From contig PLZJ01000003.1 of the NCBI GenBank assembly GCA_003152105.1, forward strand, positions 134,899 to 198,898: DNA of 64,000 nt. The letters are read 5' to 3'. Each line of letters begins with the position of its first letter. Positions within the stretch are counted from its first letter, which is position 1. Under the pieces are notes generated by a model, which was not told the origin of the DNA, searched no databases, and was given only the letters and a program-made list of their open reading frames with translations. Source of the stretch: Candidatus Levyibacteriota bacterium (lineage in GTDB: Bacteria > Patescibacteriota > Microgenomatia > Levybacterales > UBA12049). Shown here piece by piece: positions 1,794 through 39,444 of the stretch. Both the position numbers and the translations under genes were made by a program.

Positions 1794-2450
1794 TTAGATT
1801 TGTTCTTCGGAGATAGCAGAAATGTCATCTGCCACTTGTTCAGGGATTATTTTCTTTGTTGTTTTTTTGACAATTTTTTTAACTGGAGGAGTAGGGAAAT
1901 CTACTACGGCTTCTTCAACAACTGGCAATACCTTTTCAACAGTGATTTCTGGTTTCGCTTTTTTTACTTTCTTCGTAGATTCTAATTTTATAGGCTCAAC
2001 ACTTACTTCTTCTTTTGAAGAAGTAGACAGTAAGGATAGTATCTTATCTAATTTTGCATTTACTTCGTCTAACGAAACATTATTTCGAGGTCGCTCATCT
2101 GAACGTTGATTTCCTTTTTCTTTTTGTTCAAAACAATGACTACAGAAAACTTCTCTGCCTTGTCGAGGCTGAAAAGGAATTTGACATCTGTTTCCACAAT
2201 TATCACAAATTGCGTCATACATTGGTCGATCTTGTGGATTTTGTGAACGTCTATCATCATTTCGACGATTCCCTCCACCTTCTAGTTTAAAACAATCATT
2301 ACAAAATAATGGTCTGTTTCCTGTTGGCTTAAAGGGGACTTGGCACGCTGCACCACATTTACTACAAACTGCGCTATGCATTGGGGGGCGTTCTACTCCA
2401 CGATTATATACACTTCTTCCTCTATCTGATCTTCCGTTAAAAATGGCCAT
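1794..2450 (-). CDS. tandem zinc-ribbon protein with lysine-rich C-terminal tail
   Basis: Two copies of C-x2-C-x3-C-x-(V/I)PF-x-P-x3-(R)-x-(L/V)-(F/Y)-C-x2-CF: CSKCGAACQVPFKPTGNRPLFCNDCF and CDNCGNRCQIPFQPRQGREVFCSHCF. C-terminus is KK-rich (KKVKKAKPE...KKIVKKTTKKII). Confidence 0.6.
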   Translation of the reverse strand: MAIFNGRSDRGRSVYNRGVERPPMHSAVCSKCGAACQVPFKPTGNRPLFCNDCFKLEGGGNRRNDDRRSQNPQDRPMYDAICDNCGNRCQIPFQPRQGREVFCSHCFEQKEKGNQRSDERPRNNVSLDEVNAKLDKILSLLSTSSKEEVSVEPIKLESTKKVKKAKPEITVEKVLPVVEEAVVDFPTPPVKKIVKKTTKKIIPEQVADDISAISEEQI

Positions 2451-3183: not shown

Positions 3184-4101
3184 ATGCCAAAACGTATACA
3201 TGTTTCCATTGCTCTTCCTACATATTCTGGTGGAGAAAGCTTAATCCATACCTTAAAATCCATTTATTCTCAAAGTGCGTATAAAAAATTGCACCACATA
3301 TTGGTAGTTGTTGATGGAAAAAAACTTTCTAAGAAAATACGACTCGAAATACAAAATCCAAAGTTACTCATAAAATACTATCCAAAGAGAAGGGGACAGG
3401 CTGTTCGAATAAATAATATATTTGATTTACTTTTTGATGATTTGATAATACTGACAAACGATGACGTGTTATTGGATCGAAATGTTGTTGAAAATATCAT
3501 ACAAACGTTTCAAAAAACAAAAGCTGATCTAATAGGTTGCAATGTGCAGCCACTAAGTTTTTCTAATGTATTTACAAAAGCGCTCTTTACAGGCCAAATG
3601 GTTCATAAATATATTGCACATAATTGGAATAGGGGAAACAATTACTTTACCTGTAATGGAAGGCTAATTGCAGTTTCAAGAAATCTTGCTAAAAAAATTG
3701 AAATACCAAAAGGTGCAGTAAATAATGATGCATTTATCTATATCTTTACCAAACTTCATAAATTTAAATATGCATTTGCAAAACAAGCGATATGTTATTA
3801 CAAACTTCCTGGAAACTTTAGTGAACACTTACAACAAAATAACAGATTTCAAAATTCTCTCAAAGAAAATAAAGCATACTTTTCCAAACAAATCTATTCA
3901 ATTTACAATTTTCCAAAATCGTTAGCACTGAAAAGCTTTGCCAAATCATTTGTAGCCCATCCTCTTTCTACATTACTCTATATACAAATCCTTTTAAAAA
4001 CGATGAAGCTAAATCTTACGAGTAAAAAGTTTAGAAAAAAAGCGATTTGGAAAACAGATATCAGCACAAAAACATTTAATAAATCACTTCTTGTAAAATA
4101 A
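3184..4101 (+). CDS. glycosyltransferase family 2
   Basis: N-terminal VSIALPTYSGGESL (GT2 signature sheet), VVVDGKK and LTNDDV (DxD-like) motifs. 305 aa. Confidence 0.7.
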   Translation: MPKRIHVSIALPTYSGGESLIHTLKSIYSQSAYKKLHHILVVVDGKKLSKKIRLEIQNPKLLIKYYPKRRGQAVRINNIFDLLFDDLIILTNDDVLLDRNVVENIIQTFQKTKADLIGCNVQPLSFSNVFTKALFTGQMVHKYIAHNWNRGNNYFTCNGRLIAVSRNLAKKIEIPKGAVNNDAFIYIFTKLHKFKYAFAKQAICYYKLPGNFSEHLQQNNRFQNSLKENKAYFSKQIYSIYNFPKSLALKSFAKSFVAHPLSTLLYIQILLKTMKLNLTSKKFRKKAIWKTDISTKTFNKSLLVK

Positions 4102-4141: not shown

Positions 4142-5326
4142 TTAGTGTGGGGTAAAGGATATGGCGTCAAGCCAAATAATACTAGACACTTTTGCTAAAT
4201 TAAACTTAACTGAAGCATAAGGGTCAGTCACATGAGAAGTAAATGAATACGTGAATTGTTGCCATTCAGGTGTAATGGTAAAGTCTGCTGTATCATATGG
4301 CTTATGATTTTTATATTGTATAAAAATCTTAAGTGGCCTGCTTATTGTAGCTTTTGCGTAAAAAGTAAGTGTATATGATCTACCAGCTACAAGATTTAAA
4401 TTATTTTGGATAATTTGATAAAACCAATCTCTATCCGCAACATTACCTATATAGGCTACGAAAGAACTATTTCCATCATACGAAGTTGAATTATCTATAG
4501 CATAAAAAGCAGTATATCCTGCACGTTTATAAATATACCAAGGCAAAAAACCGTTTTCAAACGAACCATTGATTAGTGTATTTTTTACTGAAGTTGGAGT
4601 TGGTGTATTTGTAGGTGCTCCAATTGTAGGTATTGGAGTATCAGTTGGAGCTTGAGTAGGAGAAGGTGTCGGTGTATTAGTTGGAATTGGAGTCGCAGTT
4701 GGGGTTGGCGTAGGATTTGCAATATAATATGTACCATTAGTTATGGTAGTTGATTCATCCGTATGAGTACTAGCAGAAATAATGTGGACATCAGTAACAT
4801 TTATGGTACCTGTTCCTACAGCAAGTGCTTGTATGACAAGTTGATAAACTGAACAACTTTGTGAATTATTACCAATTATTCCACCTAAGAAGCTTGGATT
4901 TAAAAGACTTGGAATTTTTATATATGAAAATTTACATAGGCCAACAGTTGGATATAGAATTGATTTGACAAGTAAATTCGAAGAAACTGCAATATTTGCT
5001 TGTGCAACATTAAAAGGATCTAGGCTTTTAATTCCAAGCGAAACAGTAAATGTACTTCCTGGTTGTATTGTCTGAGAGCTTGGACTAATAAACATTGCTG
5101 ATTGAGGTGCCACTTGTTGTGGAGCTGGTGGTTCAAGATTCGGACCAGCAGCATGATTTTGTGTTGTTAAAAAAGTTTTTGAAAGTATTGGCGTAGCAAC
5201 AACAAGAAGCGTTAATACTACCAGGCCAGATTTGATAATAAAATTCTGGTTCTTAAATGATTGCCATACACTTATCACGTACGGATATCTTCTGCTTAAA
5301 TGATCATGTAATCTATTATTTGTCAT
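4142..5326 (-). CDS. membrane-anchored surface protein: cohesin-like domain, Pro/Thr linker, CBM4_9-type carbohydrate-binding module
   Basis: N-terminal TM (VVLTLLVVATPILS). Segment PGSTFTVSLGIKSLDPFNVAQANIAVSSNLLVKSI...LAVGTGTINVTDV resembles type-I cohesin beta-sandwich signature. Linker PTPTPTATPIPTNTPTPSPTQAPTDTPIPTIGAPTNTPTPT. C-terminal INGSFENGFLPW... matches CBM_4_9 (NGxFE...W). Confidence 0.55.
   Translation of the reverse strand: MTNNRLHDHLSRRYPYVISVWQSFKNQNFIIKSGLVVLTLLVVATPILSKTFLTTQNHAAGPNLEPPAPQQVAPQSAMFISPSSQTIQPGSTFTVSLGIKSLDPFNVAQANIAVSSNLLVKSILYPTVGLCKFSYIKIPSLLNPSFLGGIIGNNSQSCSVYQLVIQALAVGTGTINVTDVHIISASTHTDESTTITNGTYYIANPTPTPTATPIPTNTPTPSPTQAPTDTPIPTIGAPTNTPTPTSVKNTLINGSFENGFLPWYIYKRAGYTAFYAIDNSTSYDGNSSFVAYIGNVADRDWFYQIIQNNLNLVAGRSYTLTFYAKATISRPLKIFIQYKNHKPYDTADFTITPEWQQFTYSFTSHVTDPYASVKFNLAKVSSIIWLDAISFTPH
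4592..4645. repeat. 54-nt linker-coding direct repeat, copy 1 (2 mismatches versus copy 2)
   Basis: agttggagttggtgtatttgtaggtgctccaattgtaggt... is identical over 40 nt with 5903-5942, then 12/14 identical. Encodes PTIGAPTNTPTPT on the minus strand in both genes. Confidence 0.8.
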
Positions 5327-5368
5327 ATTGTTAAAATCAAAATTATCGATATAACCTTATACTACATA

Positions 5369-7315
5369 TTAATGTCCAAATTGACTAGCAAATATTGAAA
5401 AGTCAGTTGCGTTGATAACCCCATCTCCATTCATGTCTGAAAATGGATTAAATCCAGATGTTTTATCATAATCACTTAAAAATATTGAATAATCATACAA
5501 ATCCACAACACCATCACCATTTATATCTCCTAATTTATGGACATTAAAGGTAATTTGTGTAGCAGGAGACGAAACTCCAGCTGCATTTTGGCCAACTATT
5601 GCAAATGATTGAAGCCCAATTGGCTTAAGTGTTACCGATGCTTGCCACGTTGTACTTGTTGGATATGTAGTGGTCGAATTTCCGACACTATTAAATAGTA
5701 TTTGCGTCTCCCAACTATCTTTTGTACCAGTTAACACATATGTTGTTTGATACGTTGAAATATTGCTGCTAGTTGGTGATGTGATCACCGGTGCGCTTAG
5801 TGGTTGAGGAGTTGGAGTTGGAGTTGGTGTTGACGTTGGTGGTGGCGCAGTAGGCGTAGGGGTATTTGTTGGCGCTGGTGGAGTTGACGTTGGTGGAAGA
5901 AGAGTTGGAGTTGGTGTATTTGTAGGTGCTCCAATTGTAGGTGCTGGAGTATCAGTAACTATTGGTTCGGGAGTACTCGTTGCAACAACAATATTGTGTT
6001 TTGCAGCAATTACTCTAAAGTAATTTTGGATATAAATACCTCCACCACCTTTGTCGCAGGTAGTTGGCATCCAACTCGTCCACGCTACTTTTTGATTATC
6101 TTGCGTTGCTTTTGGCTTTCTGACCGTTGTTGCACCTGAGCCATCAAATGCATGGACAAGAAGACCGATATTGTGTGCATCAAGATAGTTAAAGAATGAT
6201 GTATCTCTTTTTTCGCCACACAAAGAATCTGTTGCTGAATTTTTTTGATTCCATTCAGTTACCAAAACAGGATATTTATTCGATAAATTACCAAATGCCC
6301 TATCCCAATCTGAGTCATCAAACGTATTTGGATCTATACTACCATACTTAAATACTGCATAAGGATGTTCTGTATAGACAATATTTGGATCATCAAGTAG
6401 ATATGAATCACCAGGATTATTAGGATCTGGCTTTTGAATATTTTCTAAACTCTCAGCCCATTCACCACCATCAGCAATTATTACATTTGTTGCATGATAT
6501 CCTCTAATTTCATTAACCAAATCCTGCATACCTACAATATCTGGATTTGGATCTTCACTTGATACTTTATTTACTTTTATCGGGCAAGACTGATCGACCA
6601 TACAATATTTTCTACCCCATTTCCATTCTTGCCAACCCGTATAGACTGTTTGTCCATTTTCAATTTTTGTGGTGTTTGAATTATTTTGCGGTTCATTATA
6701 TATTTCAAAAATTACTTGTGGATCATTTGCAAGAGGGGACTGCGCAAGTAATTTCCAGGCAGTTTCAGTATCAACTGTTGGCAAAAGACTTTGCGATCCA
6801 CAACCATTATATTCATCATTCACATTTATAATAATACCCGTAACATATTTTTTAGAAAGCGCGACATCTGCTTCTAGTTTATTCAAGTAGTCATTAGCAG
6901 AAATATGTGAATCATTTCCTGCAAGTGCAGGTTGGGAAACTTGATAACGAAGCATTGAGGGAGAACCCCAATTTTGCTTCATGTAGGAAAGCTCATTATC
7001 ATTTAAATTATATGCAGAACCATATGAGCTATTATCACCACAATTTGCTTGATTTAGTGTTCCCATCATATTAAATCCCCACGCAGTAAAGGGACTATCG
7101 TTGTAATATAAAGTTTTACCAATAACATGAAACCCTTGTTCTGATGCTGCGAAATTATGTAACGATTGCTGAAGCATTATTCCAGATGGAATTGAAAGTG
7201 TTATAAGAAGTAACGCAACGATTGCAGACTTTGTTGTCAAAGAAAGAGAGGAAAATAATTTCCATGATTTTTGAATATATGATACGTGTTTTGTATTTGT
7301 CACAATTTCAGCCAT
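5369..7315 (-). CDS. glycoside hydrolase family 5 (cellulase-family) enzyme with C-terminal dockerin module
   Basis: GH5 acid/base motif IFEIYNEPQ and nucleophile motif VLVTEWN. Pro/Thr linker (PTIGAPTNTPTPT...). C-terminal duplicated Ca-binding loops DINGDGVVDLYD / DMNGDGVINATD typical of type-I dockerin. N-terminal TM/signal. Confidence 0.8.
   Translation of the reverse strand: MAEIVTNTKHVSYIQKSWKLFSSLSLTTKSAIVALLLITLSIPSGIMLQQSLHNFAASEQGFHVIGKTLYYNDSPFTAWGFNMMGTLNQANCGDNSSYGSAYNLNDNELSYMKQNWGSPSMLRYQVSQPALAGNDSHISANDYLNKLEADVALSKKYVTGIIINVNDEYNGCGSQSLLPTVDTETAWKLLAQSPLANDPQVIFEIYNEPQNNSNTTKIENGQTVYTGWQEWKWGRKYCMVDQSCPIKVNKVSSEDPNPDIVGMQDLVNEIRGYHATNVIIADGGEWAESLENIQKPDPNNPGDSYLLDDPNIVYTEHPYAVFKYGSIDPNTFDDSDWDRAFGNLSNKYPVLVTEWNQKNSATDSLCGEKRDTSFFNYLDAHNIGLLVHAFDGSGATTVRKPKATQDNQKVAWTSWMPTTCDKGGGGIYIQNYFRVIAAKHNIVVATSTPEPIVTDTPAPTIGAPTNTPTPTLLPPTSTPPAPTNTPTPTAPPPTSTPTPTPTPQPLSAPVITSPTSSNISTYQTTYVLTGTKDSWETQILFNSVGNSTTTYPTSTTWQASVTLKPIGLQSFAIVGQNAAGVSSPATQITFNVHKLGDINGDGVVDLYDYSIFLSDYDKTSGFNPFSDMNGDGVINATDFSIFASQFGH
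5903..5956. repeat. 54-nt linker-coding direct repeat, copy 2
   Basis: Same sequence as 4592-4645, see copy 1. Confidence 0.8.
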
Positions 7316-7529
7316 ACCTACTCTAGTATAGTGAGTAAATTATCAAGAAGTCAACTTTTAGATGATAAAAATAACTAAATAGTAGTTCAGCTCATCAATA
7401 CAATATAATCAATAAACTAAAACTTGCCAATTGAGATCAAATTGCGTATAATAATCCATAATCCTGAAGCTATTTTTATAACTTCACAAAAAATCTAGGT
7501 AAATTAAGAAAGGCAGAGTAAAAAGTACG

Positions 7530-7979
7530 ATGATAAAGGCAGAAACAAAGAAAATTATAAAATCCTCACTTTTTTTTGAGATATTATTTGTTGTTATCGC
7601 ACTTCTTATTATCTTCTCAGGGAATATAAAAACACAACTTTACAAATGGGATCTTCTTCCTCATCCAGAAACATTTACAGAACTCTATTTTGAAAATCAC
7701 ACATTGCTTCCAACAAAAGTTGAAGCAGGGGAGCCATACACGTTTTCCTTTACGACACACAACTTAGAATACAAAACCATGACCTACACTTATCAAATAC
7801 AAATTCAAGATGGAAGCAGAAAAACAACAATACAAAAGGCAAAATTCACTCTCAACCAAAATCAAAAAAAGACTATCAAAGAAACATTCACAGCACCTCA
7901 ACTTTCCAACAGATCAATGGTTGCTGTTGACCTAACAAACAAAAACAATCAACAAATAGATTTTTGGATTACTGAATAA
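7530..7979 (+). CDS. hypothetical membrane-anchored protein
   Basis: 149 aa with N-terminal TM (LFFEILFVVIALLIIF). Stop is 2 nt before the next ATG, so it leads the glycosyltransferase operon. Confidence 0.45.
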   Translation: MIKAETKKIIKSSLFFEILFVVIALLIIFSGNIKTQLYKWDLLPHPETFTELYFENHTLLPTKVEAGEPYTFSFTTHNLEYKTMTYTYQIQIQDGSRKTTIQKAKFTLNQNQKKTIKETFTAPQLSNRSMVAVDLTNKNNQQIDFWITE

Positions 7980-7981
7980 CT

Positions 7982-8746
7982 ATGAATAAAAAGAAAAAAA
8001 TTACCGTATTAATCCCTTGTCATAACGAAGAAAAGGGCATAGGAAAAGTTATTGACGAAATACCAGTTAAGAGACTAAAACGCCTAGGATATATTACGGA
8101 AGTTATTGTTATAAACAATAAATCTACCGATCGAACAGCGCATGTTGCACAATCTCGAGGAGCATATGTACTGGTAGAATTTCGCAAAGGTAAAGGACAA
8201 GCACTTCTCGCAGGATTTAATGCAGTTAGTTCAGATACTTCCTATGTAGTCATGCTTGATGGAGATAATACGTATAAAGCAAAAGAAATGTACCGACTCA
8301 TTGAACCACTTGAGAGTAATTTTTGTCATGCAGTGGTTGGTTCTAGACTTAGTGGAAAAATGAAACATAATTCGTTAAAGTTTTCTAATCGAGTTGCAAA
8401 TTGGGTTTATACTTTTCTAGTTAGACAATTTTACCGTGCTAATGTGACCGATGTTTTAAGTGGATACTTTGCGTGGAAAAAAGAAGTTATAGATGATTTG
8501 AAACACCATATTGAATCAACTGATTTTGCAATAGAAATGGATATAATTACAAAAATGGTAAAACTAGGACATGAAGTTTATTCAGTACCAATAACCTATG
8601 ATGTCAGAGAAGGGAAATCAAAAATTAGTGCATTTGAAGACGGCGTACGAATATTCTATGTCTTATTTAAAAATCTATTTTGGATTCCAAAAAAAACACA
8701 ACATATTAAAAATCAACTAACTTACACAAGCAAATCCTCGGCATAA
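7982..8746 (+). CDS. glycosyltransferase family 2, dolichyl-/polyprenyl-phosphate sugar synthase-like (DPM1/GtrB-like)
   Basis: ITVLIPCHNEEKGIGKVIDEIP N-terminus, VVMLDGDNTY (DxD), ~250 aa size typical of Dpm1/GtrB-type GT2. Confidence 0.75.
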   Translation: MNKKKKITVLIPCHNEEKGIGKVIDEIPVKRLKRLGYITEVIVINNKSTDRTAHVAQSRGAYVLVEFRKGKGQALLAGFNAVSSDTSYVVMLDGDNTYKAKEMYRLIEPLESNFCHAVVGSRLSGKMKHNSLKFSNRVANWVYTFLVRQFYRANVTDVLSGYFAWKKEVIDDLKHHIESTDFAIEMDIITKMVKLGHEVYSVPITYDVREGKSKISAFEDGVRIFYVLFKNLFWIPKKTQHIKNQLTYTSKSSA

Positions 8747-8747
8747 C

Positions 8748-9881
8748 ATGAATATATCACCAATAAAGAAAAAGATAGCGATAGTTTCTGATGCAATTTA
8801 TCCCTACAACAAAGGAGGAAAGGAAAAACGTATTTTTGAAATATCTACAAGACTAGCTAAGAGAGGTCACTATGTGCATATATATACAATGAAATGGTGG
8901 AAAGGTGAAAATATTAAAGTTGAAAATGGAGTTACACTTCACGCGATTAGTCCACTATATCCTTTATATTCAGGAAATAGAAGATCTATAAAAGAAGCCA
9001 TATTTTTTGCCTTACATTGTTTTAAATTATTGTATGAAGACTTTGATGTAATTGAAGTTGATCATATGCCACATCTAATTCTGTTTCCACTTAAAATAGT
9101 TTGCTTGATAAGAAGAAAGAGATTAATTGTAACCTGGAATGAAGTTTGGGGAAGAGTATATTGGATTAAATATATGGGAATTCTAGGTAACATTTCATAT
9201 TTTATTGAAAAATTAAGTGTTTTAATGCCTGATGAAATTATCTCAGTTTCTTATCATACTACCAAAAATCTAAAACACATACTAGGTTTTACAAAAAAGA
9301 TTACAACTATTCCAAATGGAATTGACTTAGAATTAATACGAAATACAAAACCATCTAAAAACAAATCAGATATAATTTTTGCTGGCAGGTTATTATCGCA
9401 CAAAAATATTGATGTATTAATAAAATCTATTTCTCTTTTAATAAAAAAACACCCAAAACTTAAATGTATAATCATAGGTGATGGTCCCGAAAAAAATAAA
9501 TTACTTAAACTAACAGATGATTTAAAATTAAATCATAATATTGTATTTCTTAATTTTTTTAAGAAATCTAAGAAATTATATGCATTAATGAAATCATCTA
9601 AAGTTTTTGTTCTACCTTCAACTAGAGAAGGATTTGGAATTGTTGCAATTGAAGCAAACGCATGCAATATCCCCATAATAACTTCAAAACATAAAGATAA
9701 CGCTGCTAAAGATTTAGTTAAAAAAATGGAAGGTTTTGTTATTGAATTAAATGATAAAGAATTAGCAAGAGCTATCGATTTGCAATTTAATCAAAAATTT
9801 ACTAGTAATTTTTTAGAGTCAGAAAAAAAATATAACTGGAATAGTATTACAAATAAAGTTAATAGTATTTATTTAAAATGA
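8748..9881 (+). CDS. glycosyltransferase family 1 (GT4-type, GT-B fold)
   Basis: C-terminal EGFGIVAIEANACNIPIITS motif (E-x7-E GT4 signature). IIFAGRLLSHKNIDVLIK. 377 aa. Confidence 0.75.
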   Translation: MNISPIKKKIAIVSDAIYPYNKGGKEKRIFEISTRLAKRGHYVHIYTMKWWKGENIKVENGVTLHAISPLYPLYSGNRRSIKEAIFFALHCFKLLYEDFDVIEVDHMPHLILFPLKIVCLIRRKRLIVTWNEVWGRVYWIKYMGILGNISYFIEKLSVLMPDEIISVSYHTTKNLKHILGFTKKITTIPNGIDLELIRNTKPSKNKSDIIFAGRLLSHKNIDVLIKSISLLIKKHPKLKCIIIGDGPEKNKLLKLTDDLKLNHNIVFLNFFKKSKKLYALMKSSKVFVLPSTREGFGIVAIEANACNIPIITSKHKDNAAKDLVKKMEGFVIELNDKELARAIDLQFNQKFTSNFLESEKKYNWNSITNKVNSIYLK

Positions 9882-10825
9882 AAAAAATATCTTTTATAAT
9901 TATAGCTTTTAACGAAGAAAAAACTATTGCACGTTGTATTAAATCTATTATGAAACAAAAAAATCTGTTTGATTACGAAATAATTGTGGTAAATGATAGT
10001 TCAACAGATTCAACTATAAAAGTCGTATCTAAATTCGTTAAAATAAATAAAAGGATAAAACTTCATTCTCTATTAACAAATCAAGGGAGAGGTGCTGCTC
10101 GAAATACTGGAATTAATGCTTCTATTGGTGAATACGTCGCTTTTATAGATGCAGATATTATTTTACCTCAAAACTGGCTAATAACATGCATGAGTTATAT
10201 GGATCGCTATGATGCCGTTAGTGGCATTGCGGTGCCTGATGGTGATGTTAACTATATTTATGTAAAATGTAAACTGAATCCAAAAATTGTATCGCATAGC
10301 ACTATTATAACTGGCAATAATGGCTTATATAATCGAAAAATTTTTGGGTCTGTGATGTTTGACAAAAGTTATAAAAATGGCGAAGACTTTGTTTTCAATC
10401 ATTATTTGAAAAAGAAAAAATATAAAATATATTCAATTACCTCCTTGGTTGTAGAACACAGAGAATCGAAAGATTTTATTAAAGAACTTAAATGGCTTTA
10501 TCAAAGTGGCTTAGGTGCTTCACGCTTATTTAAACAATTCGGTAAATTACGCTTGCCAGATATAACATTTTTTTGTCTATTAATTATTGTTGTCTTAACT
10601 ACCTTGTTAAACTATATACTTCATTTATATATCTTAATACTATTTTTACCTCTTTATGTATTATTTATAAGCACAATACATCTAATTAAAAAATTCCATT
10701 TTCAATTTAACAAATCAATTAGCTTTACTATAGCTATACTTTTAAATAGTATTTTATTAGCTAGTTATTATTGGGGACGTTTTATTGGTATATTTACTGA
10801 AAAAAAGTCAAGGTTCAGTAATTGA
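9878..10825 (+). CDS. glycosyltransferase family 2 with C-terminal TM segments
   Basis: ISFIIIAFNEEKTIARCIKSI, IIVVNDSSTDST, AFIDADI (DxD). C-terminal hydrophobic helices. Start overlaps the previous stop (ATGA). Confidence 0.7.
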   Translation: MKKISFIIIAFNEEKTIARCIKSIMKQKNLFDYEIIVVNDSSTDSTIKVVSKFVKINKRIKLHSLLTNQGRGAARNTGINASIGEYVAFIDADIILPQNWLITCMSYMDRYDAVSGIAVPDGDVNYIYVKCKLNPKIVSHSTIITGNNGLYNRKIFGSVMFDKSYKNGEDFVFNHYLKKKKYKIYSITSLVVEHRESKDFIKELKWLYQSGLGASRLFKQFGKLRLPDITFFCLLIIVVLTTLLNYILHLYILILFLPLYVLFISTIHLIKKFHFQFNKSISFTIAILLNSILLASYYWGRFIGIFTEKKSRFSN

Positions 10826-10857
10826 TAAATAAAACGTATAGTTCAAATTAATATAAT

Positions 10858-11862
10858 ATGAAAAAAACACCTTTTGTAAGTATTTTAATCTGTACATTTA
10901 ACGGTTCTAAAAAAATAGAAAAGTGCTTAAGATCATTGATTAATCAAAATTATCCAAAAAATAAATTTGAATTAATAATTGTTGACGATGGATCTACAGA
11001 TAATACTATTGAGGTAGTATTAAAATTCCCAGTTGTTTTGGTTAAACACCAAAAAAATAAAGGGATCGCAACAGCAAGAAATACTGGGTTAATGAAATCA
11101 CATGGAGAAATTATTGTAAATATTGACGATGATTGTGTTATGGATAAAAATTGGTTGAAAAATTTGATTAAAGCATATGACACCGAAAGCGTAATGGGTG
11201 CAGGAGGTGTATTAATTTTACCAAATAATCCTTCTATCGTAGATGAATACTGTTATCATGTTGGGTATGGGAATCCTACCCCAATTTTATTAGGGAAATC
11301 CAATAACATTGTTGAACGATTTTGGAATTATTTGCATGTCAACTTTACGAATCCTCAATCTAAATACATAAATGGTTCCTTGGTATTTGAGTTTCCAACA
11401 ATTAATTCTTCGTTTAGAAAAAAATATCTAACTAGAATAAATGGATGGAATGAACTTTTCACTACTTCATCAGAAGATCTTGATATATGTAGAAGACTAA
11501 AAAACAGATACCCTAAATTAGATTTTGTTGTAATGCCAAAAGCAAAATTAATACATAAACAAGATTTAACATTGTTAAAATTTCTTTCTAAAGAATACAA
11601 TCGTGGAAAATTAAGAAAGAAATATTACACAATAAAGAATCAAATACCACCATATTTTCCTTTTCCAATTTTATTCATTTTGATTAGTATTATTATAGTA
11701 CTCTTGAAATTATCAGTTATAATTATATTATTTATACCATTTTTACTTTATCCTTGGTGGATTATCAGAGCATTTAATCAAAAAAGAGTTAAAATATTAT
11801 TATTCCCATATTTGCAACTATTACATGAAGAGGCTACAGTTTTAGGGATGTTGATTAATTAA
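10858..11862 (+). CDS. glycosyltransferase family 2 with C-terminal TM segments
   Basis: VSILICTFNGSKKIEKCLRSL, LIIVDDGSTDNT, NIDDDC (DxD). C-terminal membrane helices. Confidence 0.75.
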   Translation: MKKTPFVSILICTFNGSKKIEKCLRSLINQNYPKNKFELIIVDDGSTDNTIEVVLKFPVVLVKHQKNKGIATARNTGLMKSHGEIIVNIDDDCVMDKNWLKNLIKAYDTESVMGAGGVLILPNNPSIVDEYCYHVGYGNPTPILLGKSNNIVERFWNYLHVNFTNPQSKYINGSLVFEFPTINSSFRKKYLTRINGWNELFTTSSEDLDICRRLKNRYPKLDFVVMPKAKLIHKQDLTLLKFLSKEYNRGKLRKKYYTIKNQIPPYFPFPILFILISIIIVLLKLSVIIILFIPFLLYPWWIIRAFNQKRVKILLFPYLQLLHEEATVLGMLIN

Positions 11863-11863
11863 T

Positions 11864-14770
11864 ATGATTTCAATAATAATAATTCTTAAAAATGATTTAG
11901 AAATAATACAAACTATAGGAGGAATAAATGATCAAGATTTTCATGGCGAAGTCGAATTAATAGTTATAGATAGATCAACCATTAATTATCCTCAAATACA
12001 CAGCAGATTTCCTTTAAAATGGGTAAAATTTAATCCAAAAGGCAAACAATTTACTATTCCGGAACAAAGAAATAGAGGACTCACTGAGTCAAAAGGAAAT
12101 ATTATTGTATTTCTGGATGTAAGTTGTATTCCTCAAACAAATTGGTTAACAGAATTAGTAAAACCAATAATAAAGTACAATGAAAAAATTGTGATGGGTA
12201 AAACTGGGTCAATTGGAAAAAAAACATTAAATGACTTATCCTATGATAAATTAGTTAATATTAAATATGTTAATGAAGCACCAACTATAAACATAGCTAT
12301 TTCTAAAGAAATATTTAATACAGTTGGTTTATTTGATGAAAAGCTTGAGTATGGTTCGGACGTAGATTTTAGTTGGCGTGCAATTGATAAAGGATATGCT
12401 ATTCGATATCAACCTTTAGCTCTAGTTAGTCATAACTGGGGCAATAATAAAAGAGAAATAAAACGAACAATTCTATATGGAAAAGCCAGAGCTAGACTTC
12501 TTATTAAACATATTAGAACACGTTGGAAAAACCTGTTTGGTAAAGATTCACCAGTGTTATTATATCCAGCACTTATTATGGGTTTACCAATTACAATCAT
12601 TTATCATTGGTATTTGTTAGTATTTCCATTATTAGTATTAAAAAATACAAAAGAACCAAATCCTATTGGTATAGTATCCAAACATATAATTTATGGGGTT
12701 GGTGTATTAATAGAAATTGTAAATCTATTATTCAAATGTCTAAACAAAATTCTTAAAGAAGCAAACAGTTTAGAATTTACCTACACGCTAGGTCTAGCAT
12801 TATTTTCCGCGATGACTTATGGCTTAATAGTAAATTTTATTTTACCGCAATTTGGTATTAATTCACCTCTTTCATTTCATTATATTTGGCCAGTTTATAT
12901 TTTCTTTTTGTTTCCATTAATTAATCTATTATCAGAAATTAAAAAGTGGTTCAATAAAGATTATTTATCATGGCTGTTAAAGATATTATTTTTATTAAAT
13001 CCTATACTTGCTATAGCAGGAGTAAATTATCTTGATAATACGGGTAATGGATCGCTAGCTTTAGCTTCTGTAGCGTTAATTTGTTTAAATTTTACAATAA
13101 CATTTTTACAAAGAAATTATAGAGATGAAATATTTAAATTATCTTTATATTCATCGGCTATATCATTACTATTAGCTAATTCTCTAAGAAGTCACTTTCT
13201 TGTTGGATGGGATATTCACCAAGAATATTTTGTTTTTCGTCTAACTAATCTTCACAACTTTTGGAATATAAATTCCTTCAGAGATGCTTATAATGCATGT
13301 TTAAGTATTACCATTCTACCAACAATAATTCATAATCTTTCTGGATTTTCACCGTTAACAATATTTCGATTAATATATCCACTAATAATTGCCTTAGTAC
13401 CAATTGTTGTATATCAAGTTGGAACAAAATTAACTGATAAAAAAATAGCCTATGCCGGAGCATTTGCTTTTTTACTCCAAGCTCAATATTTTACAGAATT
13501 ACCATCTCTGCTAAGACAGGGGATAGCTTTTTTGTTTTTTGCACTACTTATTGAAATATTAATTAGCACTAAAATAAGTCAAAAAAGAAGAAACCTTTAT
13601 TTTTTGATATTTGGTATAGGTATGATTTTTTCCCACTATTCCACAACCTACGTAGCATTAGCAATATTATTGTTAGCAAAGATAATCAATGTCATCTTTA
13701 ATAAGTTTTGGTCAGGTAAAGAGTTAACAAGCCCAATAACTTTTAGCTCGTTAACAATTCTTTTTCTTATAACTTTTTTATGGAATACATTAATAACCAA
13801 CACTACACAAGGAATTAATCAAATCTTTATAAATGTCTTTAATAATATTGGTAGCACTTTTTCTCTTGAAAATAAATCTAACATGATCAGAAATATAGTT
13901 TACCAACCTTCCAATAATACAACTGAAGTAATAAATTATTCAAATAAAAGTATGGAAAACATTACTGATCCTCAAAATTATAAAGATTATCAGATTTATC
14001 CGGTGTCATTAAACACTGGTAAATCAGTTTTAATTTCTGATCCAACTCCGATATATTTCCATTTAATAATTCCATGGGTATTTCGCTTTTCAATACTTTT
14101 AGGGTTTATTTATCTACTAATAAATTATTTCAAGAGAAAAGAATCTCCTTTTATTATTAGTATATGCTTTTCAATGTTTATTATAACTTTAAGTATTGGA
14201 ATACTACCATATTTATCAATTAATTATAATTTTGAGAGAGTATTTCAGCAAATGTTAGTATTATTAGCACCTATAAGTATAATTGGTTTTATACATATAA
14301 TTAGGGTTGTTAAAAAAATACCAATTTCCTTACCTATTATCATATTTTTATTATCATATTTCATTCAAACAACCGGATTTGTCGACCATTTTATATATAA
14401 TAGCAGCATATGGATGTATAATAATTCTGGTGAACAATACTACCGTTATTATTCATCAAGTGGTGAAATTAATGGTATCATTTGGCTAGAAAAAAATACT
14501 AATCCAACTATCTTACTGTATGCTGATGAATATTCAAAATTAAGATTTCAAGCATACTCAAATGAAAAATTCAGCTATATTTCTAATCAGATTAACCCAC
14601 CTGTCATAGAAAAAGATAGCTATATTTTCTCAGGTCTAGCTGGAACTAAGGCTAATACTGTATATTCTGAAATCAATAATCAAGCTCTTGAATTTAGTTT
14701 TCCCAATAAATACTTATCTGAAACTAAAAACACAATTTATTCAAACTCAGTTACAAAAATATATAAATGA
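11864..14770 (+). CDS. GT2-domain / large polytopic membrane-domain fusion protein (968 aa)
   Basis: N-terminal ~230 aa with GT2 features (ISIIIILKND..., LIVIDRST, FLDVSC). Followed by ~700 aa with >=14 hydrophobic helices. Start is 2 nt after the previous stop. Confidence 0.6.
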   Translation: MISIIIILKNDLEIIQTIGGINDQDFHGEVELIVIDRSTINYPQIHSRFPLKWVKFNPKGKQFTIPEQRNRGLTESKGNIIVFLDVSCIPQTNWLTELVKPIIKYNEKIVMGKTGSIGKKTLNDLSYDKLVNIKYVNEAPTINIAISKEIFNTVGLFDEKLEYGSDVDFSWRAIDKGYAIRYQPLALVSHNWGNNKREIKRTILYGKARARLLIKHIRTRWKNLFGKDSPVLLYPALIMGLPITIIYHWYLLVFPLLVLKNTKEPNPIGIVSKHIIYGVGVLIEIVNLLFKCLNKILKEANSLEFTYTLGLALFSAMTYGLIVNFILPQFGINSPLSFHYIWPVYIFFLFPLINLLSEIKKWFNKDYLSWLLKILFLLNPILAIAGVNYLDNTGNGSLALASVALICLNFTITFLQRNYRDEIFKLSLYSSAISLLLANSLRSHFLVGWDIHQEYFVFRLTNLHNFWNINSFRDAYNACLSITILPTIIHNLSGFSPLTIFRLIYPLIIALVPIVVYQVGTKLTDKKIAYAGAFAFLLQAQYFTELPSLLRQGIAFLFFALLIEILISTKISQKRRNLYFLIFGIGMIFSHYSTTYVALAILLLAKIINVIFNKFWSGKELTSPITFSSLTILFLITFLWNTLITNTTQGINQIFINVFNNIGSTFSLENKSNMIRNIVYQPSNNTTEVINYSNKSMENITDPQNYKDYQIYPVSLNTGKSVLISDPTPIYFHLIIPWVFRFSILLGFIYLLINYFKRKESPFIISICFSMFIITLSIGILPYLSINYNFERVFQQMLVLLAPISIIGFIHIIRVVKKIPISLPIIIFLLSYFIQTTGFVDHFIYNSSIWMYNNSGEQYYRYYSSSGEINGIIWLEKNTNPTILLYADEYSKLRFQAYSNEKFSYISNQINPPVIEKDSYIFSGLAGTKANTVYSEINNQALEFSFPNKYLSETKNTIYSNSVTKIYK

Positions 14771-15846
14771 AAATTAAAGTATTAGTATATCCTTACGACA
14801 TAAATCCATACCAGAACTTACTTTATAATCATATGCGCAATGGAGTTGAGATAAAATATTTGAAAGGATCAACTTCATCTCAAACAATAAACAATATATT
14901 GCTTCCATTATTACTTATAAAATACAGAGTAAAAGGGTATAAAATTTTTCATCTCCACTGGACCTATGGCTTTACTTTTCCTGGCAAAAATTATCTATCA
15001 CTTTTTTTTTCAACAATATATTACTATTTAATTCTAACTTTTATTAAGTTTACAGGATATAAAATCGTTTGGACTGTTCACAATATTCTTCCTCATGAAA
15101 AACAATTTATCAATGATATTTATGCAAGTAAAGTTTTATCAAAATTATGTAATGTTAAAATAGTCCATTCAAAATCCGCAATTGATGAAATGAGACATTT
15201 AGACTTTGACATTAAAAATATAAATATAATTCCTCATGGAAACTATATTGAATCATATGTAAATGAAATTACTAGAAAGGAAGCGAGAAGAATATTAAAT
15301 ATTAATAATAATGATTTTATTTTTCTTTTTTTTGGGAGAGTTGAAAAATATAAAGGTATTGAATATATGTTAAATGAATTTTCAAAAATTAATAATCACA
15401 ATATTAAACTTATAATATGCGGGGCTTGTACTGATCCAGAACTATTAACAAAAATACAATTATATATTACTAACAGTAATATAACATTTATAAATAAACA
15501 CATTAATAATAATGATATACAAATATTCATGAATGCATCTGATACTGTAATTTTACCATTCAATAAAATAAACTCAAGTGGCTCTGCAATTCTAGCATTA
15601 TCATTCGCTAAGACCATTATTGCACCACAAAAAGGAACATTAAATGAAATGCCAAAAAATGTTGGTTATTTTTATAGTAATGGAAATAATAATGGTTTAT
15701 ATAAAAGTATGATTAATTCAATTTCAAAAAGAAATATGCTTGAAATTATAGGTCAGAATGGATATGAATATATTAAAACTTTTTCTTGGAACAATATTTC
15801 AAAAAAAACGTTAAGACTCTATAAAGAATTAGAACAAAAGGATTAA
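14767..15846 (+). CDS. glycosyltransferase family 1-like (GT-B)
   Basis: FIFLFFGRVEKYKGIEYML and NASDTVILPFNKINSSGSAILALSFAKTIIAP resemble GT4 C-terminal domain. Overlaps the upstream gene by 4 nt. Confidence 0.55.
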   Translation: MKIKVLVYPYDINPYQNLLYNHMRNGVEIKYLKGSTSSQTINNILLPLLLIKYRVKGYKIFHLHWTYGFTFPGKNYLSLFFSTIYYYLILTFIKFTGYKIVWTVHNILPHEKQFINDIYASKVLSKLCNVKIVHSKSAIDEMRHLDFDIKNINIIPHGNYIESYVNEITRKEARRILNINNNDFIFLFFGRVEKYKGIEYMLNEFSKINNHNIKLIICGACTDPELLTKIQLYITNSNITFINKHINNNDIQIFMNASDTVILPFNKINSSGSAILALSFAKTIIAPQKGTLNEMPKNVGYFYSNGNNNGLYKSMINSISKRNMLEIIGQNGYEYIKTFSWNNISKKTLRLYKELEQKD

Positions 15847-15848
15847 TA

Positions 15849-16973
15849 TCAGAGTACCGATTTATATGCATCAAGTGTTTCTTTTGCGCAACGTTTCCAA
15901 CTAAACTTTCTTGATTGATTTATGCCTTTTTTTATAAGGATATTTTGCAAATTATTATTATCTAAGATTTTATTCATTTGTAAACATATTTCATTTATAT
16001 CATAGGGATCTACTTTTATTGCGGCGTCACCGACAATTTCGGATAAAGATGAACTTGAAGAAGTTATAACAGGGACCCCTGATGCCATAGCCTCAAGTGG
16101 AGTAAAGCCAAAACCTTCATATTTTGAAGGATAAACAAATAAATCAGCCCTATGATAATAACTTAATAATTGTCTCTCGTCTATAAAACCTAGAAAATGG
16201 ACAAATTTGTTTAAATTTAATTTATGTATAATCTGGTTAAGCTTAAAAAACTCATCACCATCTCCACCAATTATTAATCTAACATCATTCCTTTTTTTAG
16301 CTAATTTATTAAACGCATATATAGTCTCGTATATTCCCTTTCTTTTTGTAAGTCCACCTAAAAAAAGTATTATTTTTGTATTACTTGATTTTCTTTGTAA
16401 AGGATAAAATTTATTTGTATCTATTCCTGGATAAATTACTAGTATTTTATTTTCAGATATTCCAAGAACATTAATTAAATCTTCTTTAGTTTTTGTAGAG
16501 ACAGCCAATAGAAGTTGGCTTTTTTTTGCGTAGCTAGAATAAGTATTAAAGTAATATTTTTCAAATTTATATCTTGATTCAGAAACCAAAGGAATAATGT
16601 CATGAAAAGTAGTGATTAAAGGTTTTTTATATAATTTTATAGGCATGATTGATTCACTTGGAGAAATTGCATGATAAACTTGTGAATTAATATCTTTCAA
16701 TTCATTCAGCATTGAAAATTTGTTATTTCTAAACCTAGAATAATAGTGAAATTCATTTTTTATTGGATTAATATAACTTTTAATAATATCAGGAATAAAA
16801 GGAGTAATAGGATTTTTTTTACTATTTATAGATGGTGATTGAAACGTATCAGATATAACGTTTAATTGTAAATTTTTATCAAGTAATTTTAATTCCTTAA
16901 CAAGCGTAGTAGTATATCTTCCTATACCATCTTTGCTATGATAATATCTTCCTGCAATAATAGAAACATTCAT
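15849..16973 (-). CDS. glycosyltransferase family 1 (GT4-type)
   Basis: [37 protein letters not shown] (GT4 E-x7-E motif). 374 aa. Confidence 0.75.
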
Positions 16974-17884
16974 AGTTTATGGGAATAACTTCCTGTTCTG
17001 CCAATATAGCCATCTAAAATTCCTTGTAAAATTACCTTAGCCATCTTGAATTCTTTTTTAATTATATGTTTATAAATTTGATAAAATGATTCTTTTAAAA
17101 ATATGGAATTAAAAATTAAATTATCAACAAAAGAATAATTATTTTTATAAAAAAATATTAAATTTCTAATAAAATAATACCTAACATTTTCTTTTCCAAT
17201 AAGATCACTTGATTTTCCAATTTTATGCCAAACTTTTGAGCTTGGTATCGCATAAAGAGAAAAATCATTTTTTACAGCCATAAGACTATAATCCATATCT
17301 TCGATATATAAAAAGTATTCTTCTTTATATAAACCTATTTTATCAATTACACTTTTTTTAATTAACATACTACAGCCAGTAAGAAATTCTACTTTTCTAT
17401 TATTTTTAAATTGACCTCTATCAATTTTTGATTTATTTTTATCGATAAAAGGCCAGGAATTCCTAAAATTGAAGTTAAGTCCTGATGACCATATTACTTC
17501 AGGTTTATCAGCTAAGTAAATAAAAGGACTCAAAATACCTATTTTCTCATCAGTTTCACCAACAGAAACTAATTCAGAAAGAAAATTCTTACTAACAACA
17601 GTGTCATTATTTAATAATAGAATATAATCAGCATCATGTTTTAATGCATATCTTATCCCCACATTACATCCTCCTGAAAAACCTAAATTTTTCAAATTTT
17701 CTAATAATTTAATATTAGGGAATTTTGATTTTATTTCCTTAACTGAGTCGTTTGTCGATGCGTTATCAATCAAAATTATTTTATAATTTTTATAGTCTAT
17801 TTTGAGCAATGATTTTAGACATTCTATGGTGTCTTTATAGCCATTCCAATTTAAAATAATAATGTAAACTAATGGGTATTTCAT
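16970..17884 (-). CDS. glycosyltransferase family 2
   Basis: LVYIIILNWNGYKDTIECLKSL, IILIDNASTDDS, DYILLLNNDTVV (DxD). 304 aa. Overlaps neighbours on both sides by 4 nt. Confidence 0.75.
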   Translation of the reverse strand: MKYPLVYIIILNWNGYKDTIECLKSLLKIDYKNYKIILIDNASTNDSVKEIKSKFPNIKLLENLKNLGFSGGCNVGIRYALKHDADYILLLNNDTVVSKNFLSELVSVGETDEKIGILSPFIYLADKPEVIWSSGLNFNFRNSWPFIDKNKSKIDRGQFKNNRKVEFLTGCSMLIKKSVIDKIGLYKEEYFLYIEDMDYSLMAVKNDFSLYAIPSSKVWHKIGKSSDLIGKENVRYYFIRNLIFFYKNNYSFVDNLIFNSIFLKESFYQIYKHIIKKEFKMAKVILQGILDGYIGRTGSYSHKL

Positions 17885-21826: not shown

Positions 21827-21832
21827 TACTAT

Positions 21833-33469: not shown

Positions 33470-33522
33470 TTGTGTAAGAAAATATAAACTCTATTGACTT
33501 ATATTTTATATAGTTATATGCT

Positions 33523-36707: not shown

Positions 36708-36710
36708 ATG

Positions 36711-39438: not shown

Positions 39439-39444
39439 AATAAA

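Follow-up and report, generated by a model that had tools for sequence, protein, structure and literature searches.

Do two adjacent genes encode a glycan-cleaving enzyme together with the protein that receives it at the cell surface? The question is raised by a gene pair in the 64-kb stretch of DNA analysed here (the window), for which a sequence-only reading had proposed a cell-anchored complex assembled through a cohesin and a dockerin.

Gene pair and modules of the enzyme

Both open reading frames are present exactly as first described, and all features of the pair lie on the minus strand (-). The GH5 gene (5369-7315) encodes 648 aa arranged as a hydrophobic segment, a GH5 domain, a Pro/Thr linker, an X module and a dockerin; this exact protein is already on record, on a 1.14-Mb scaffold. 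In the 394 aa encoded by the cohesin-CBM gene (4142-5326), a hydrophobic segment comes first, then a cohesin-like domain, and a Pro/Thr linker leads on to a CBM4_9 module. The two genes share the same strand, the dockerin gene comes first, and a spacer of 42 nt (5327..5368) separates them. No terminator-like hairpin was found within these 42 nt, and the two genes are probably carried by one transcript. A promoter-like site (TTGACT, 18 nt, TATACT; 7325..7354) lies a short distance before the GH5 start codon and matches the consensus at 10 of 12 positions. Since the scan yielded no more sites in total than shuffled sequence does, we consider it a weak candidate for the promoter of both genes.

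The GH5 catalytic domain (6155..7027; aa 97-387) was recognized by PF00150 at 73.4 bits (cut-off 23.5, E 2.8e-20). The acid/base Glu208 lies in the motif IYNEPQ (6692-6694), the nucleophile Glu354 in LVTEWN (6254-6256), and the His317-x-Tyr319 motif is kept as H317-P-Y319. These motifs line up with NEP, HxY and TE(W) in two cellulases of known structure, 4hty and 4xzw, and by this alignment the catalytic residues are intact. The enzyme is an orphan, its best non-self relative being 29% identical, and its nearest relatives of solved structure are cellulases and endoglucanases, as weak matches (E 0.007 to 0.1). The 648-aa protein has no carbohydrate-binding module of its own. A Pro/Thr-rich linker (5795..5977; aa 447-507) precedes the C-terminal modules.

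The dockerin (5372..5533; aa 595-648) has two loops for Ca binding, D597-D608 and D627-D638, and after each of them comes a helix (H239-248 and H269-279 in the numbering of the fusion model described below). PF00404 Dockerin_1 matched aa 595-641 with 32.2 bits, above its cut-off of 22.9, and the best match in the PDB was the dockerin 2y3n_B (E 7.5e-7). The repeats DINGDGVVDLYD (5492-5527) and DMNGDGVINATD (5402-5437) are the Ca-binding dockerin loops, as had been claimed, and they are the only loops of this type in the six frames of the 64-kb window. They read D-I-N-G-D-G-V-V-D-L-Y-D and D-M-N-G-D-G-V-I-N-A-T-D, with D or N at positions 1, 3, 5, 9 and 12. Type I dockerins, as found on the enzymes of C. 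thermocellum, carry a Ser-Thr or Ser-Ser pair at the recognition positions 10/11 and stand alone, without an X module; PF00404 is a generic dockerin model, and the label 'Dockerin type I' that Pfam gives it is no more specific. Here these positions are L-Y and A-T, and a conserved X module precedes the dockerin, so that the assignment to type I was not upheld.

This X module (5534..5794; aa ~508-594) is an Ig-like beta-sandwich with a YPTSTTW motif and stands immediately before the dockerin, which is the arrangement of type II/III X-Doc units. The module scored E 3.7e-16 against an HMM of the X part alone, for which 23 natural Coh-X-Doc proteins (self excluded) were used, and the whole tail of the GH5 protein matched the family X-Doc unit at E 1.3e-38 (self excluded). 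In the single-chain fusion model the X module appears as beta strands with a pLDDT of about 80-88.

The cohesin-like domain and its protein

The check set beforehand for the cohesin-like domain (4715..5101; aa 76-204) was a match to PF00963 (Pfam gathering cut-off 24.1), and the answer was negative. The model found no match in the 394-aa protein at E<=1, or in the isolated domain even at E<=10, and Cohesin was absent from the 25 Pfam families listed for 127 relatives of the domain. The cohesin-type strand pattern that had been noticed in the sequence is nevertheless real, with homologues, a profile link to true cohesins and a modelled cohesin fold. At E<=1e-3, homologues number at least 208 proteins, which share the signature FNAAQA...NPSFAGAI and two near-invariant cysteines (C131 and C158). 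The family profile (A2) retrieved the protein P0152 at E 3.9e-9, and P0152 itself is a PF00963 Cohesin (E 1.8e-11, 44.8 bits); alignment of A2 to P0152 by hhalign gave 98.2% (E 3.5e-14, 124 columns). Against the PDB, the top three matches of A2 were ScaB cohesins of R. flavefaciens (5m2o, 2.6e-4; 5aoz, 3.7e-4; 5m2s, 4.9e-3), and a fourth, 5n5p, fell below the significance threshold (E 0.74).

The AlphaFold (AF2) model of the domain is all-beta, with a pLDDT of 95.7 and a pTM of 0.88. When this model was compared with the PDB by Foldseek, 44 of the top 45 matches were cohesins or cohesin-like modules; the sole exception was the CLIPPER adhesin domain at rank 27. The matches cover cohesins of types I, II and III as well as non-cellulosomal ones (TM 0.54-0.76), at an identity of only 8-16% to these solved cohesins. 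The best of them was the non-cellulosomal cohesin 2xdh of Archaeoglobus fulgidus (E 1.7e-8, TM 0.71). Because the PF00963 test failed, it is the profile and fold evidence only that carries the call: by homology and modelled fold, aa 76-204 is a very divergent cohesin.

A Pro/Thr-rich linker (4580..4714; aa 205-249) connects this domain to the CBM4_9 module (4145..4582), which PF02018 matched at aa 249-377 with 55.7 bits (cut-off 25.9, E 8.7e-15) and which extends to the C-terminus. Its matches in the PDB include 1gui_A, the CBM4 of a T. maritima laminarinase (E 2e-8), and 1k42_A, the CBM4-2 of an R. marinus xylanase (E 1.1e-5). The ligands of CBM4-type modules are single glycan chains, not crystalline cellulose. 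Judged from sequence and models, the inventory of the two proteins is GH5, dockerin, cohesin-fold domain, Pro/Thr linker and CBM4_9, and the Pro/Thr linkers were confirmed.

The 394-aa protein had been described as membrane-anchored. Its N-terminal hydrophobic segment (5180..5242; aa 29-49), read from the sequence, is followed by NHAAG (aa 57-61). The GH5 protein has a segment of the same kind (7172..7228; aa 30-48), read in the same way and followed by HNFAAS (aa 53-58). Common to both are about 28 residues, about 20 hydrophobic residues and then the motif HN[FH]AA, and the homologue P0006 has the same N-terminal layout, with SHAAG in place of NHAAG. Each segment could serve as a signal peptide or as a signal anchor, with both proteins anchored or both cleaved. 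Because the layout is the same in the two proteins, an asymmetry of anchored socket and free enzyme is unsupported, and anchoring of the cohesin protein is not established.

Recurring gene order and the proposed unit

In the family of the cohesin domain, 45 of 127 proteins also have Pfam Dockerin_1 on their chain. Members anchored to the membrane at their C-terminus have a dockerin gene directly upstream on the same strand in 13 of 13 cases, a count that covers the anchored members with enough upstream sequence; the background is a C-terminal dockerin motif in 24 of 875 ORFs. This recurring unit was found in metagenomic relatives, including two genomes labelled Patescibacteria, and it is among Patescibacteria that the cohesin family has its nearest relatives. 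In the natural relatives the domains follow the order cohesin-X-dockerin, encoded beside a cell-anchored cohesin protein. Anchoring occurs via a C-terminal transmembrane helix, not via SLH repeats or sortase, and most members have one cohesin per protein rather than arrays. The GH5-cohesin pair shows the gene order of the recurring unit, the dockerin gene and then the cohesin gene. The downstream cohesin of the conserved unit is of the 'anchor' subtype. That of the window is not; it scored 117.6 bits with the internal-type HMM and 108.6 bits with the anchor-type HMM.

The recurring gene order (13/13) and the shared X-Doc tail support the proposal that the two genes make up a cohesin-dockerin unit. 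The parts list of a minimal cellulosome is present in adjacent, co-oriented genes, and by analogy the pair looks like a one-enzyme cellulosome. The best explanation, to which we give slightly better than even chances, is a two-gene operon encoding a minimal cohesin-dockerin glycanase unit. The data show the modules, the fold and homology of the cohesin, the conserved gene order and the intact catalytic residues; what we infer is the physical contact of cohesin and dockerin, the topology of export, the substrate and the role in the biology of the cell. The N-terminal hydrophobic segments would serve to export both products. The 648-aa protein would be a retaining GH5 beta-glycanase ending in X-Doc, and its dockerin would plug into the cohesin of the 394-aa protein in a Ca-dependent manner. 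Docking would supply the enzyme with a glycan-chain-binding module in trans; should the cohesin protein keep its N-terminal segment uncleaved, docking would also tether the enzyme to the cell surface. The pair would then be a specialised derivative of the recurring unit, in which a dockerin cargo gene lies directly upstream of a membrane-anchoring cohesin gene.

Among known systems, the pair most resembles ClcC/ClcD of Cellulosilyticum lentocellum DSM 5427, in which ClcC (CBM3-X2-cohesin) and ClcD (GH5-dockerin) were shown experimentally to form a heterodimer that increases activity on insoluble cellulose, and whose genes are about 40 bp apart (PMC13487519). Both pairs consist of co-oriented genes at similar spacing (42 nt here) that encode a non-catalytic protein with a single cohesin and a CBM, and a CBM-less GH5 enzyme with a C-terminal dockerin. 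The cohesin of ClcC is detectable with Pfam, whereas here the cohesin is invisible to PF00963 and stands between a hydrophobic segment and a Pro/Thr linker followed by CBM4_9. An Ig-like X module precedes the dockerin on the enzyme here, and the gene order is apparently reversed, with the dockerin gene first. The host of ClcC/ClcD belongs to the Firmicutes, whereas the cohesin family of the window has its nearest relatives in Patescibacteria. Binding and a gain of activity were demonstrated for ClcC/ClcD, whereas the window pair is known from sequence and models.

These data may point to something broader, with chances that we place slightly below even: a so far unannotated cohesin-dockerin system for surface assembly in uncultured bacteria (among reference genomes so far, Patescibacteria/CPR only), resting on a subfamily of cohesins that escapes Pfam. 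It would comprise a Cargo-Coh-X-Doc gene directly upstream of a membrane-anchored cohesin gene, and poly-cohesin scaffoldin-like proteins too; in the window, the system would have been recruited for a CBM-targeted GH5 glycanase. If so, these small cells arm their surface with enzymes and adhesins through cohesin-dockerin contacts, and the GH5-cohesin pair is the CPR counterpart of a minimal cellulosome.

Neighbourhood, substrate and choice of partner

The pair borders on a glycosyltransferase/exopolysaccharide cluster of roughly 17 kb (about 7.5 to 24.5 kb) and is transcribed divergently from it. The cluster contains GT2, GT4 and GT1 genes, a Polysacc_synt flippase, a homologue of the exosortase EpsH and a PMT_2 protein. 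Another GT2 gene is located just downstream of the cohesin gene, and a second GH5 gene (24503-26029), which is dockerin-less and unrelated to the first, lies at the other end of the cluster. The first reading had overlooked this second GH5, the glycosyltransferase cluster, the X module and the N-terminal hydrophobic segment of the GH5 protein.

The position at the cluster edge suggests that the target is a glycan of the cell itself and not cellulose. A full version of this role, compatible with docking, has the pair trimming, remodelling or releasing what the neighbouring cluster makes, an exopolysaccharide or envelope glycan, or, alternatively, acting on host surface glycans in episymbiosis; we regard it as possible but rather unlikely. 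Other exopolysaccharide loci have dedicated hydrolases. Here, two unrelated GH5 genes bracket the cluster, the downstream GT2 gene adjoins the cohesin gene, CBM4 modules bind single chains, and the nearest solved relative of this one, 1gui, is a laminarin-binding CBM4. In a Saccharibacterium, a dockerin protein and glycan-binding surface proteins were reported to be essential, and the authors speculate that host glycans are the target (PMC10633639). However, the two genes diverge from the cluster, and the nearest solved relatives of the enzyme, although weak matches, are cellulases and endoglucanases.

Returning to the docking pair, we considered whether its partners are correctly assigned. 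The GH5 X-Doc could instead dock on a C-terminally membrane-anchored cohesin encoded elsewhere and the 394-aa cohesin take another dockerin, their adjacency reflecting shared regulation or a common origin; this is improbable, though several observations point towards it. The cohesin is slightly nearer to the internal than to the anchor subtype. A single-chain AlphaFold fusion of the window cohesin and the GH5 X-Doc, with 23 natural Coh-X-Doc alignment rows, reached a pTM of 0.51 with a low-confidence linker, and hence the dockerin had no confident placement on the cohesin. The best PDB matches to the fused architecture were the CohI9-X-DocII chains of C. thermocellum CipA (4fl4; E 5.6e-10, 13-14% identity), and the partner of the CipA X-Doc is an anchoring cohesin, not an internal one. 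Like CipA CohI9-X-DocII with SdbA (4fl4, 2b59), the window protein has an Ig-like X module immediately before its dockerin; unlike in CipA, this X-Doc sits on an enzyme and not on a scaffoldin, and in contrast to CipA/SdbA the relatives are anchored by a C-terminal transmembrane helix and mostly have one cohesin per protein. The search for other partners covered the window and its fetched flanks, out of a genome of roughly 1.14 Mb. No further cohesin, dockerin or X-Doc was found within this range, and the single cohesin and the single X-Doc unit adjoin each other. Furthermore, the two genes match the conserved dockerin-then-cohesin unit in order and in spacing, and a cohesin-plus-CBM protein is the most sensible partner for a CBM-less dockerin enzyme, as in ClcC/ClcD.

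That the cohesin-fold domain acts outside the cell as a generic beta-sandwich, a spacer or an adhesin, and not as a dockerin receptor, the dockerin alone serving as a Ca-, glycan- or wall-binding tail, is very improbable: the PF00963 miss, the absence of Cohesin from the families listed for the relatives, the low identity to solved cohesins and the many non-cellulosomal cohesin- and dockerin-like modules without a demonstrated partner (Peer et al. 2009, in the passage of PMC13487519 that cites it) would fit, but the frequent dockerin fusion (45/127) and the adjacency (13/13) are hard to explain without an interaction, profile-level homology extends to true cohesins (98.2%), and the fold matches are specific to cohesins and not to beta-sandwiches at large.

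The pair itself, read as a docking unit, had been called notable on the grounds that such systems are best known from Clostridia and Bacteroidetes. This rarity was overstated: as PMC13487519 relates from Peer et al. 2009 (its ref. 32), non-cellulosomal cohesins and dockerins are present in all three domains, and a dockerin protein has been reported as essential in a Saccharibacterium (PMC10633639). Outside the cellulolytic Clostridia, in the survey of Peer et al. 2009 as related in PMC13487519, cohesins and dockerins often share a polypeptide, and the proteins that bear them are mostly non-catalytic. Most of the window cohesin's family likewise sits on non-catalytic proteins, often with a dockerin in the same chain, and the best structural match of its model, as noted above, is non-cellulosomal. 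In contrast to the non-cellulosomal cohesins, the family has its two near-invariant cysteines and its own signature, and in the window the dockerin is carried by a glycoside hydrolase and the cohesin by a CBM protein, a division of labour like that of cellulosomes.

Composition of the gene pair

The sequence-only reading had described two neighbouring open reading frames and the calcium-binding loops of a dockerin, and these are present as claimed. The first gene (5369-7315, minus strand) encodes a protein of 648 amino acids with a GH5 domain (aa 97-387, 73.4 bits) and a dockerin (Dockerin_1, aa 595-641, 32.2 bits), and the second (4142-5326, minus strand) encodes a protein of 394 amino acids carrying a CBM_4_9 module (aa 249-377, 55.7 bits). 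All three Pfam matches lie above the curated cut-offs, and the two loops of the GH5 protein are the only dockerin-type loops found in the window in all six frames. The genes are separated by 42 nt on the same strand, with no terminator-like hairpin in between, and a promoter-like site (7354-7325) precedes the GH5 gene, the first of the pair. Identical copies of both proteins were found on a metagenomic scaffold of at least 1.14 Mb with a GC content of 25-39% (ERZ28653421 scaffold_5).

The catalytic apparatus of GH5 is kept: the acid/base Glu208 in IYNEPQ, His317-x-Tyr319 and the nucleophile Glu354 in LVTEWN align with their equivalents in the solved cellulases 4hty and 4xzw. The enzyme is otherwise an orphan, its best non-self relative being 29% identical. 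The nearest solved relatives of the CBM4_9 module are the CBM4 of a laminarinase (1gui, E 2e-8) and the CBM4 of xylanases. The dockerin had been assigned to type I; its recognition positions 10/11 are, however, L-Y and A-T, and it is preceded by an Ig-like X module (the two together are called X-Doc hereafter), which argues against this assignment.

Both proteins start with the same layout, in which about 28 residues are followed by about 20 hydrophobic residues and then by HNFAAS in the GH5 protein and NHAAG in its partner. Because the enzyme shares this layout, the membrane anchoring attributed to the partner is not established. The n-region before the hydrophobic core is unusually long, with its 28 or so residues. 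The motif found approximately 8-12 residues past the hydrophobic segment (window 5144-5158 for the cohesin protein and 7142-7159 for GH5, both on the minus strand) recurs as SHAAG at residues ~50-56 of P0006, a relative of the cohesin protein. It may mark a conserved site of processing or sorting.

Identity of the cohesin-like domain

The first domain of the 394-aa protein had been called a cohesin from its strand pattern. PF00963 matched neither the whole protein (threshold E<=1) nor the domain taken alone (E<=10), and a word-indexed search for homologues of this one domain also gave no match; with A2, the profile of the family of this domain, the word-indexed search retrieved two proteins only. 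The family, to which the word-indexed search of a single domain was blind, was revealed by an exhaustive HMMER search, which found at least 208 relatives at E<=1e-3, with 102 at E<=1e-10. It is compact (~125 residues) and is characterized by two near-invariant cysteines (C131 and C158 in the window protein) and by the signature FNAAQA...NPSFAGAI.

Three independent lines of evidence place this family among the cohesins. Firstly, the family profile retrieved, at E 3.9e-9, the protein P0152, which is recognized by Pfam as a cohesin (E 1.8e-11), and hhalign aligned the family profile with P0152 over 124 columns with a probability of 98.2% (E 3.5e-14). Secondly, the three best matches of the family profile among all PDB sequences were cohesins of R. 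flavefaciens ScaB (2.6e-4, 3.7e-4 and 4.9e-3); one more ScaB cohesin fell short of significance (E 0.74). Thirdly, when the AlphaFold2 model of the window domain, which is of very high confidence (pLDDT 95.7, pTM 0.88), was compared with the PDB by Foldseek, 44 of the top 45 matches were cohesins or cohesin-like modules, with all types represented. The first of these matches was 2xdh, a cohesin from Archaeoglobus fulgidus that is not part of a cellulosome (E 1.7e-8, TM 0.71). On the strength of these profile comparisons and of the predicted structure, we accept that the domain is, by fold and superfamily, a cohesin, of a subfamily that the current Pfam model does not cover. The original claim thus fails with PF00963 and stands with the family profile, hhalign and the structural comparison.

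Architecture and gene order of the cohesin family

Among the best 150 of the at least 208 relatives, two architectures predominate. The anchor type (~61 proteins of ~300 aa) has a signal peptide ahead of a single cohesin, which is followed by a prealbumin/CarboxypepD_reg-like domain and, at the C-terminus, by a transmembrane helix. In about 64 others the cohesin is followed by a dockerin, and 45 of those have a recognisable Ig-like X module (YPTxTxW) in between; we call a cohesin in such a Coh-X-Doc protein the internal type. Pfam detected Dockerin_1 in 45 of 127 family members, and a few members have a poly-cohesin, scaffoldin-like architecture. The closest relatives of the window cohesin, P0002 (371 aa), P0004 (389 aa, a fragment), P0006 (618 aa) and P0003 (911 aa), contain two to three family cohesins in tandem, with Pro/Thr linkers between them, and an N-terminal hydrophobic segment is seen in three of these four (P0002, P0003 and P0006).

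The family signature recovered two genome loci and 32 metagenome loci. These loci contain a fixed gene pair: a gene for a cargo-Coh-X-Doc protein and, immediately after it in the same orientation, a cohesin gene of the anchor type (~300-340 aa). The anchor gene was directly preceded by a dockerin gene in all 13 loci that had at least 300 nt of upstream sequence, against a background in which 24 out of 875 ORFs have a dockerin motif at the C-terminus. The two-gene unit was seen in L003 (2325-7777), L004 (666-2733), L006, L007, L009, L012, L014-L016, L018, L020, L021 and L023. In L003, three dockerin-bearing genes succeed one another ahead of the anchor gene; the anchor-type cohesin is encoded at 6848-7777 and an internal-type one at 5419-6828. 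The cargo domains are variable, those of L003 being an alpha/beta hydrolase that resembles lipases and an N-terminal region that is uncharacterised and has no Pfam match. In the species-representative genomes, profile A3 found two loci, both in MAGs named 'Patescibacteria group bacterium', so that the taxonomic distribution of the family is based on few named genomes.

The gene order of the window pair, a dockerin gene and then a cohesin gene, is that of the conserved unit. Family HMMs built without the window sequences recognized the X-Doc tail of GH5 (E 1.3e-38; 3.7e-16 for the X module alone) and the cohesin of the 394-aa protein (1e-35). Because of these matches, the GH5 protein is most readily interpreted as a cargo of the cohesin/X-Doc system, devoid of a cohesin of its own. 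The 394-aa protein would be a one-off variant of the cohesin partner: by comparison with the anchor type, its hydrophobic segment is N-terminal and not C-terminal, and the CBM4_9 module, present among the 127 family members only in the window protein, replaces the prealbumin-like domain. In the window and its fetched flanks there is a single cohesin and a single X-Doc unit, and these adjoin. The assignment of the window cohesin to the anchor subtype was rejected since it scored slightly higher with the HMM of the internal type (117.6 bits versus 108.6 bits).

Proposed complex and genomic surroundings

Cellulosomes are organised by the pairing of cohesins with dockerins, which is also in common use as a tool of synthetic biology. 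For the window pair, the modules, fold, homology, conserved synteny and catalytic residues are matters of observation, and from here on we infer contact, topology and substrate. Both proteins would be exported, and the X-Doc of the CBM-less GH5 would bind the cohesin of its neighbour in a Ca-dependent manner. The partner would then supply a chain-binding CBM in trans and would possibly tether the enzyme to the cell. Such a complex is the best explanation of the pair, and we hold it with moderate confidence. A single-chain AlphaFold fusion of the window cohesin with the X-Doc tail of GH5, an artificial stand-in for AF-Multimer modeled from an alignment of 23 natural Coh-X-Doc proteins, gave a pTM of 0.51 with a disordered linker, a value expected for independent domains and one that speaks neither for nor against binding in trans. 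A minimal cellulosome-like pair with putative binding is plausible from its modules and from the comparative support of the family loci, while the terms 'anchored', 'type I' and 'cellulose' of the initial proposal are not established.

The closest characterised system is ClcC/ClcD of Cellulosilyticum lentocellum, a minimal cellulosome in which ClcC is CBM3-X2-cohesin and ClcD is GH5_1-dockerin; the genes are ~40 bp apart, and insoluble cellulose is attacked more actively by the heterodimer that the proteins form (PMC13487519). The window pair has the same parts and gene spacing and differs in its lineage, in its domain order, in the subfamily of its cohesin and the family of its CBM, and in the X module carried by its enzyme. 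According to the same article, which cites Peer et al. 2009, non-cellulosomal cohesin- and dockerin-like modules occur in all three domains. A dockerin-domain protein was reported to be essential in a cultivated Saccharibacterium (PMC10633639). The full-text literature that we searched describes no cohesin family or cohesin-dockerin operon in CPR/Patescibacteria.

The pair may act on a glycan of the cell itself or of its host, and this is as plausible as cellulose degradation because the pair borders a low-GC cluster of ~17 kb (~7530-24460, GC 24-29%) with GT2, GT4 and GT1 genes. The cluster includes a GT2-DUF2206 fusion of 968 aa (11864-14770), a Polysacc_synt flippase (17881-19128), an exosortase EpsH homologue (19115-20080) and a PMT_2 protein (20327-21826), and looks like an exopolysaccharide or envelope-glycan locus. 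Its far side is closed by a second GH5 gene (24503-26029, plus strand; 508 aa, GTG start; PF00150 E 1.4e-10), unrelated and without dockerin. The two GH5 genes thus bracket the cluster; they were rejected as paralogues, since BLASTP gave no significant similarity.

Alternatively, the X-Doc of GH5 might prefer an anchor-type cohesin encoded elsewhere in the genome, because the window cohesin is slightly nearer to the internal type and by analogy with CipA. The best PDB match of the fused Coh-X-Doc architecture is CohI9-X-DocII of C. thermocellum CipA (4fl4, E 5.6e-10), a fragment of a primary scaffoldin with an X-Doc that docks onto an anchoring cohesin. If the modules do not bind at all, the pair would be an ordinary secreted GH5 beside a CBM protein.

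If the cohesin-X-Doc complex does form, it would involve a divergent cohesin subfamily invisible to the standard HMM, which surveys based on PF00963 or dbCAN would miss, and lineages such as those of the Patescibacteria MAGs would wrongly appear to have unpartnered dockerins. The recurring gene pair of a dockerin cargo and an anchored cohesin would offer a concrete and testable mechanism for surface display in ultra-small, host-dependent bacteria. The window pair itself would exemplify, independently and in nature, the one-cohesin, one-enzyme design known from C. lentocellum, and would provide a new orthogonal cohesin/X-dockerin pair for designer assemblies.

Several other genes were noted. 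At the head of the cluster and divergent from the GH5 gene, 7530-7979 (plus strand) encodes 149 aa with one N-terminal hydrophobic segment; its matches are DUF1616 (33.4 bits) and CBM_4_9, of which the C-terminal half is covered (29.1 bits, cut-off 25.9). The cluster also contains an Rce1-like protease and a methyltransferase, and a GT2 gene (3184-4101, plus strand) lies just downstream of the cohesin gene. In L003, a protein-mannosyltransferase-like GT2-PMT_2 fusion (7799-10360, plus strand) is found directly 3′ of the anchor gene, and its homologue lies near the two-gene unit of L021 (1728-3395). Such genes may have to do with the glycosylation of Pro/Thr linkers. We do not claim an association between glycosyltransferases and the conserved unit, as few loci (L003, L020 and L021) show it. 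Further along the window, the 32567-40779 region carries the F420 genes cofC (35194-35787), cofD (35784-36707) and cofE/F420 ligase (36711-37469), together with genes for two luciferase-like oxidoreductases, for a quinone reductase dependent on F420H2 (33523-33936) and for both subunits, I and II, of cytochrome bd oxidase (38509-40779). To our knowledge such a set is unusual for a CPR-type genome. In a cluster look-up that covered 12 window proteins, those with housekeeping functions (DnaB, EF-P, YebC and others) shared their clusters with no close relative. Finally, 1794-2450 (minus strand) encodes a protein of 218 aa with two CxxC...CxxC zinc-ribbon repeats (zf_Tbcl_2) and a Lys-rich, low-complexity C-terminal half.
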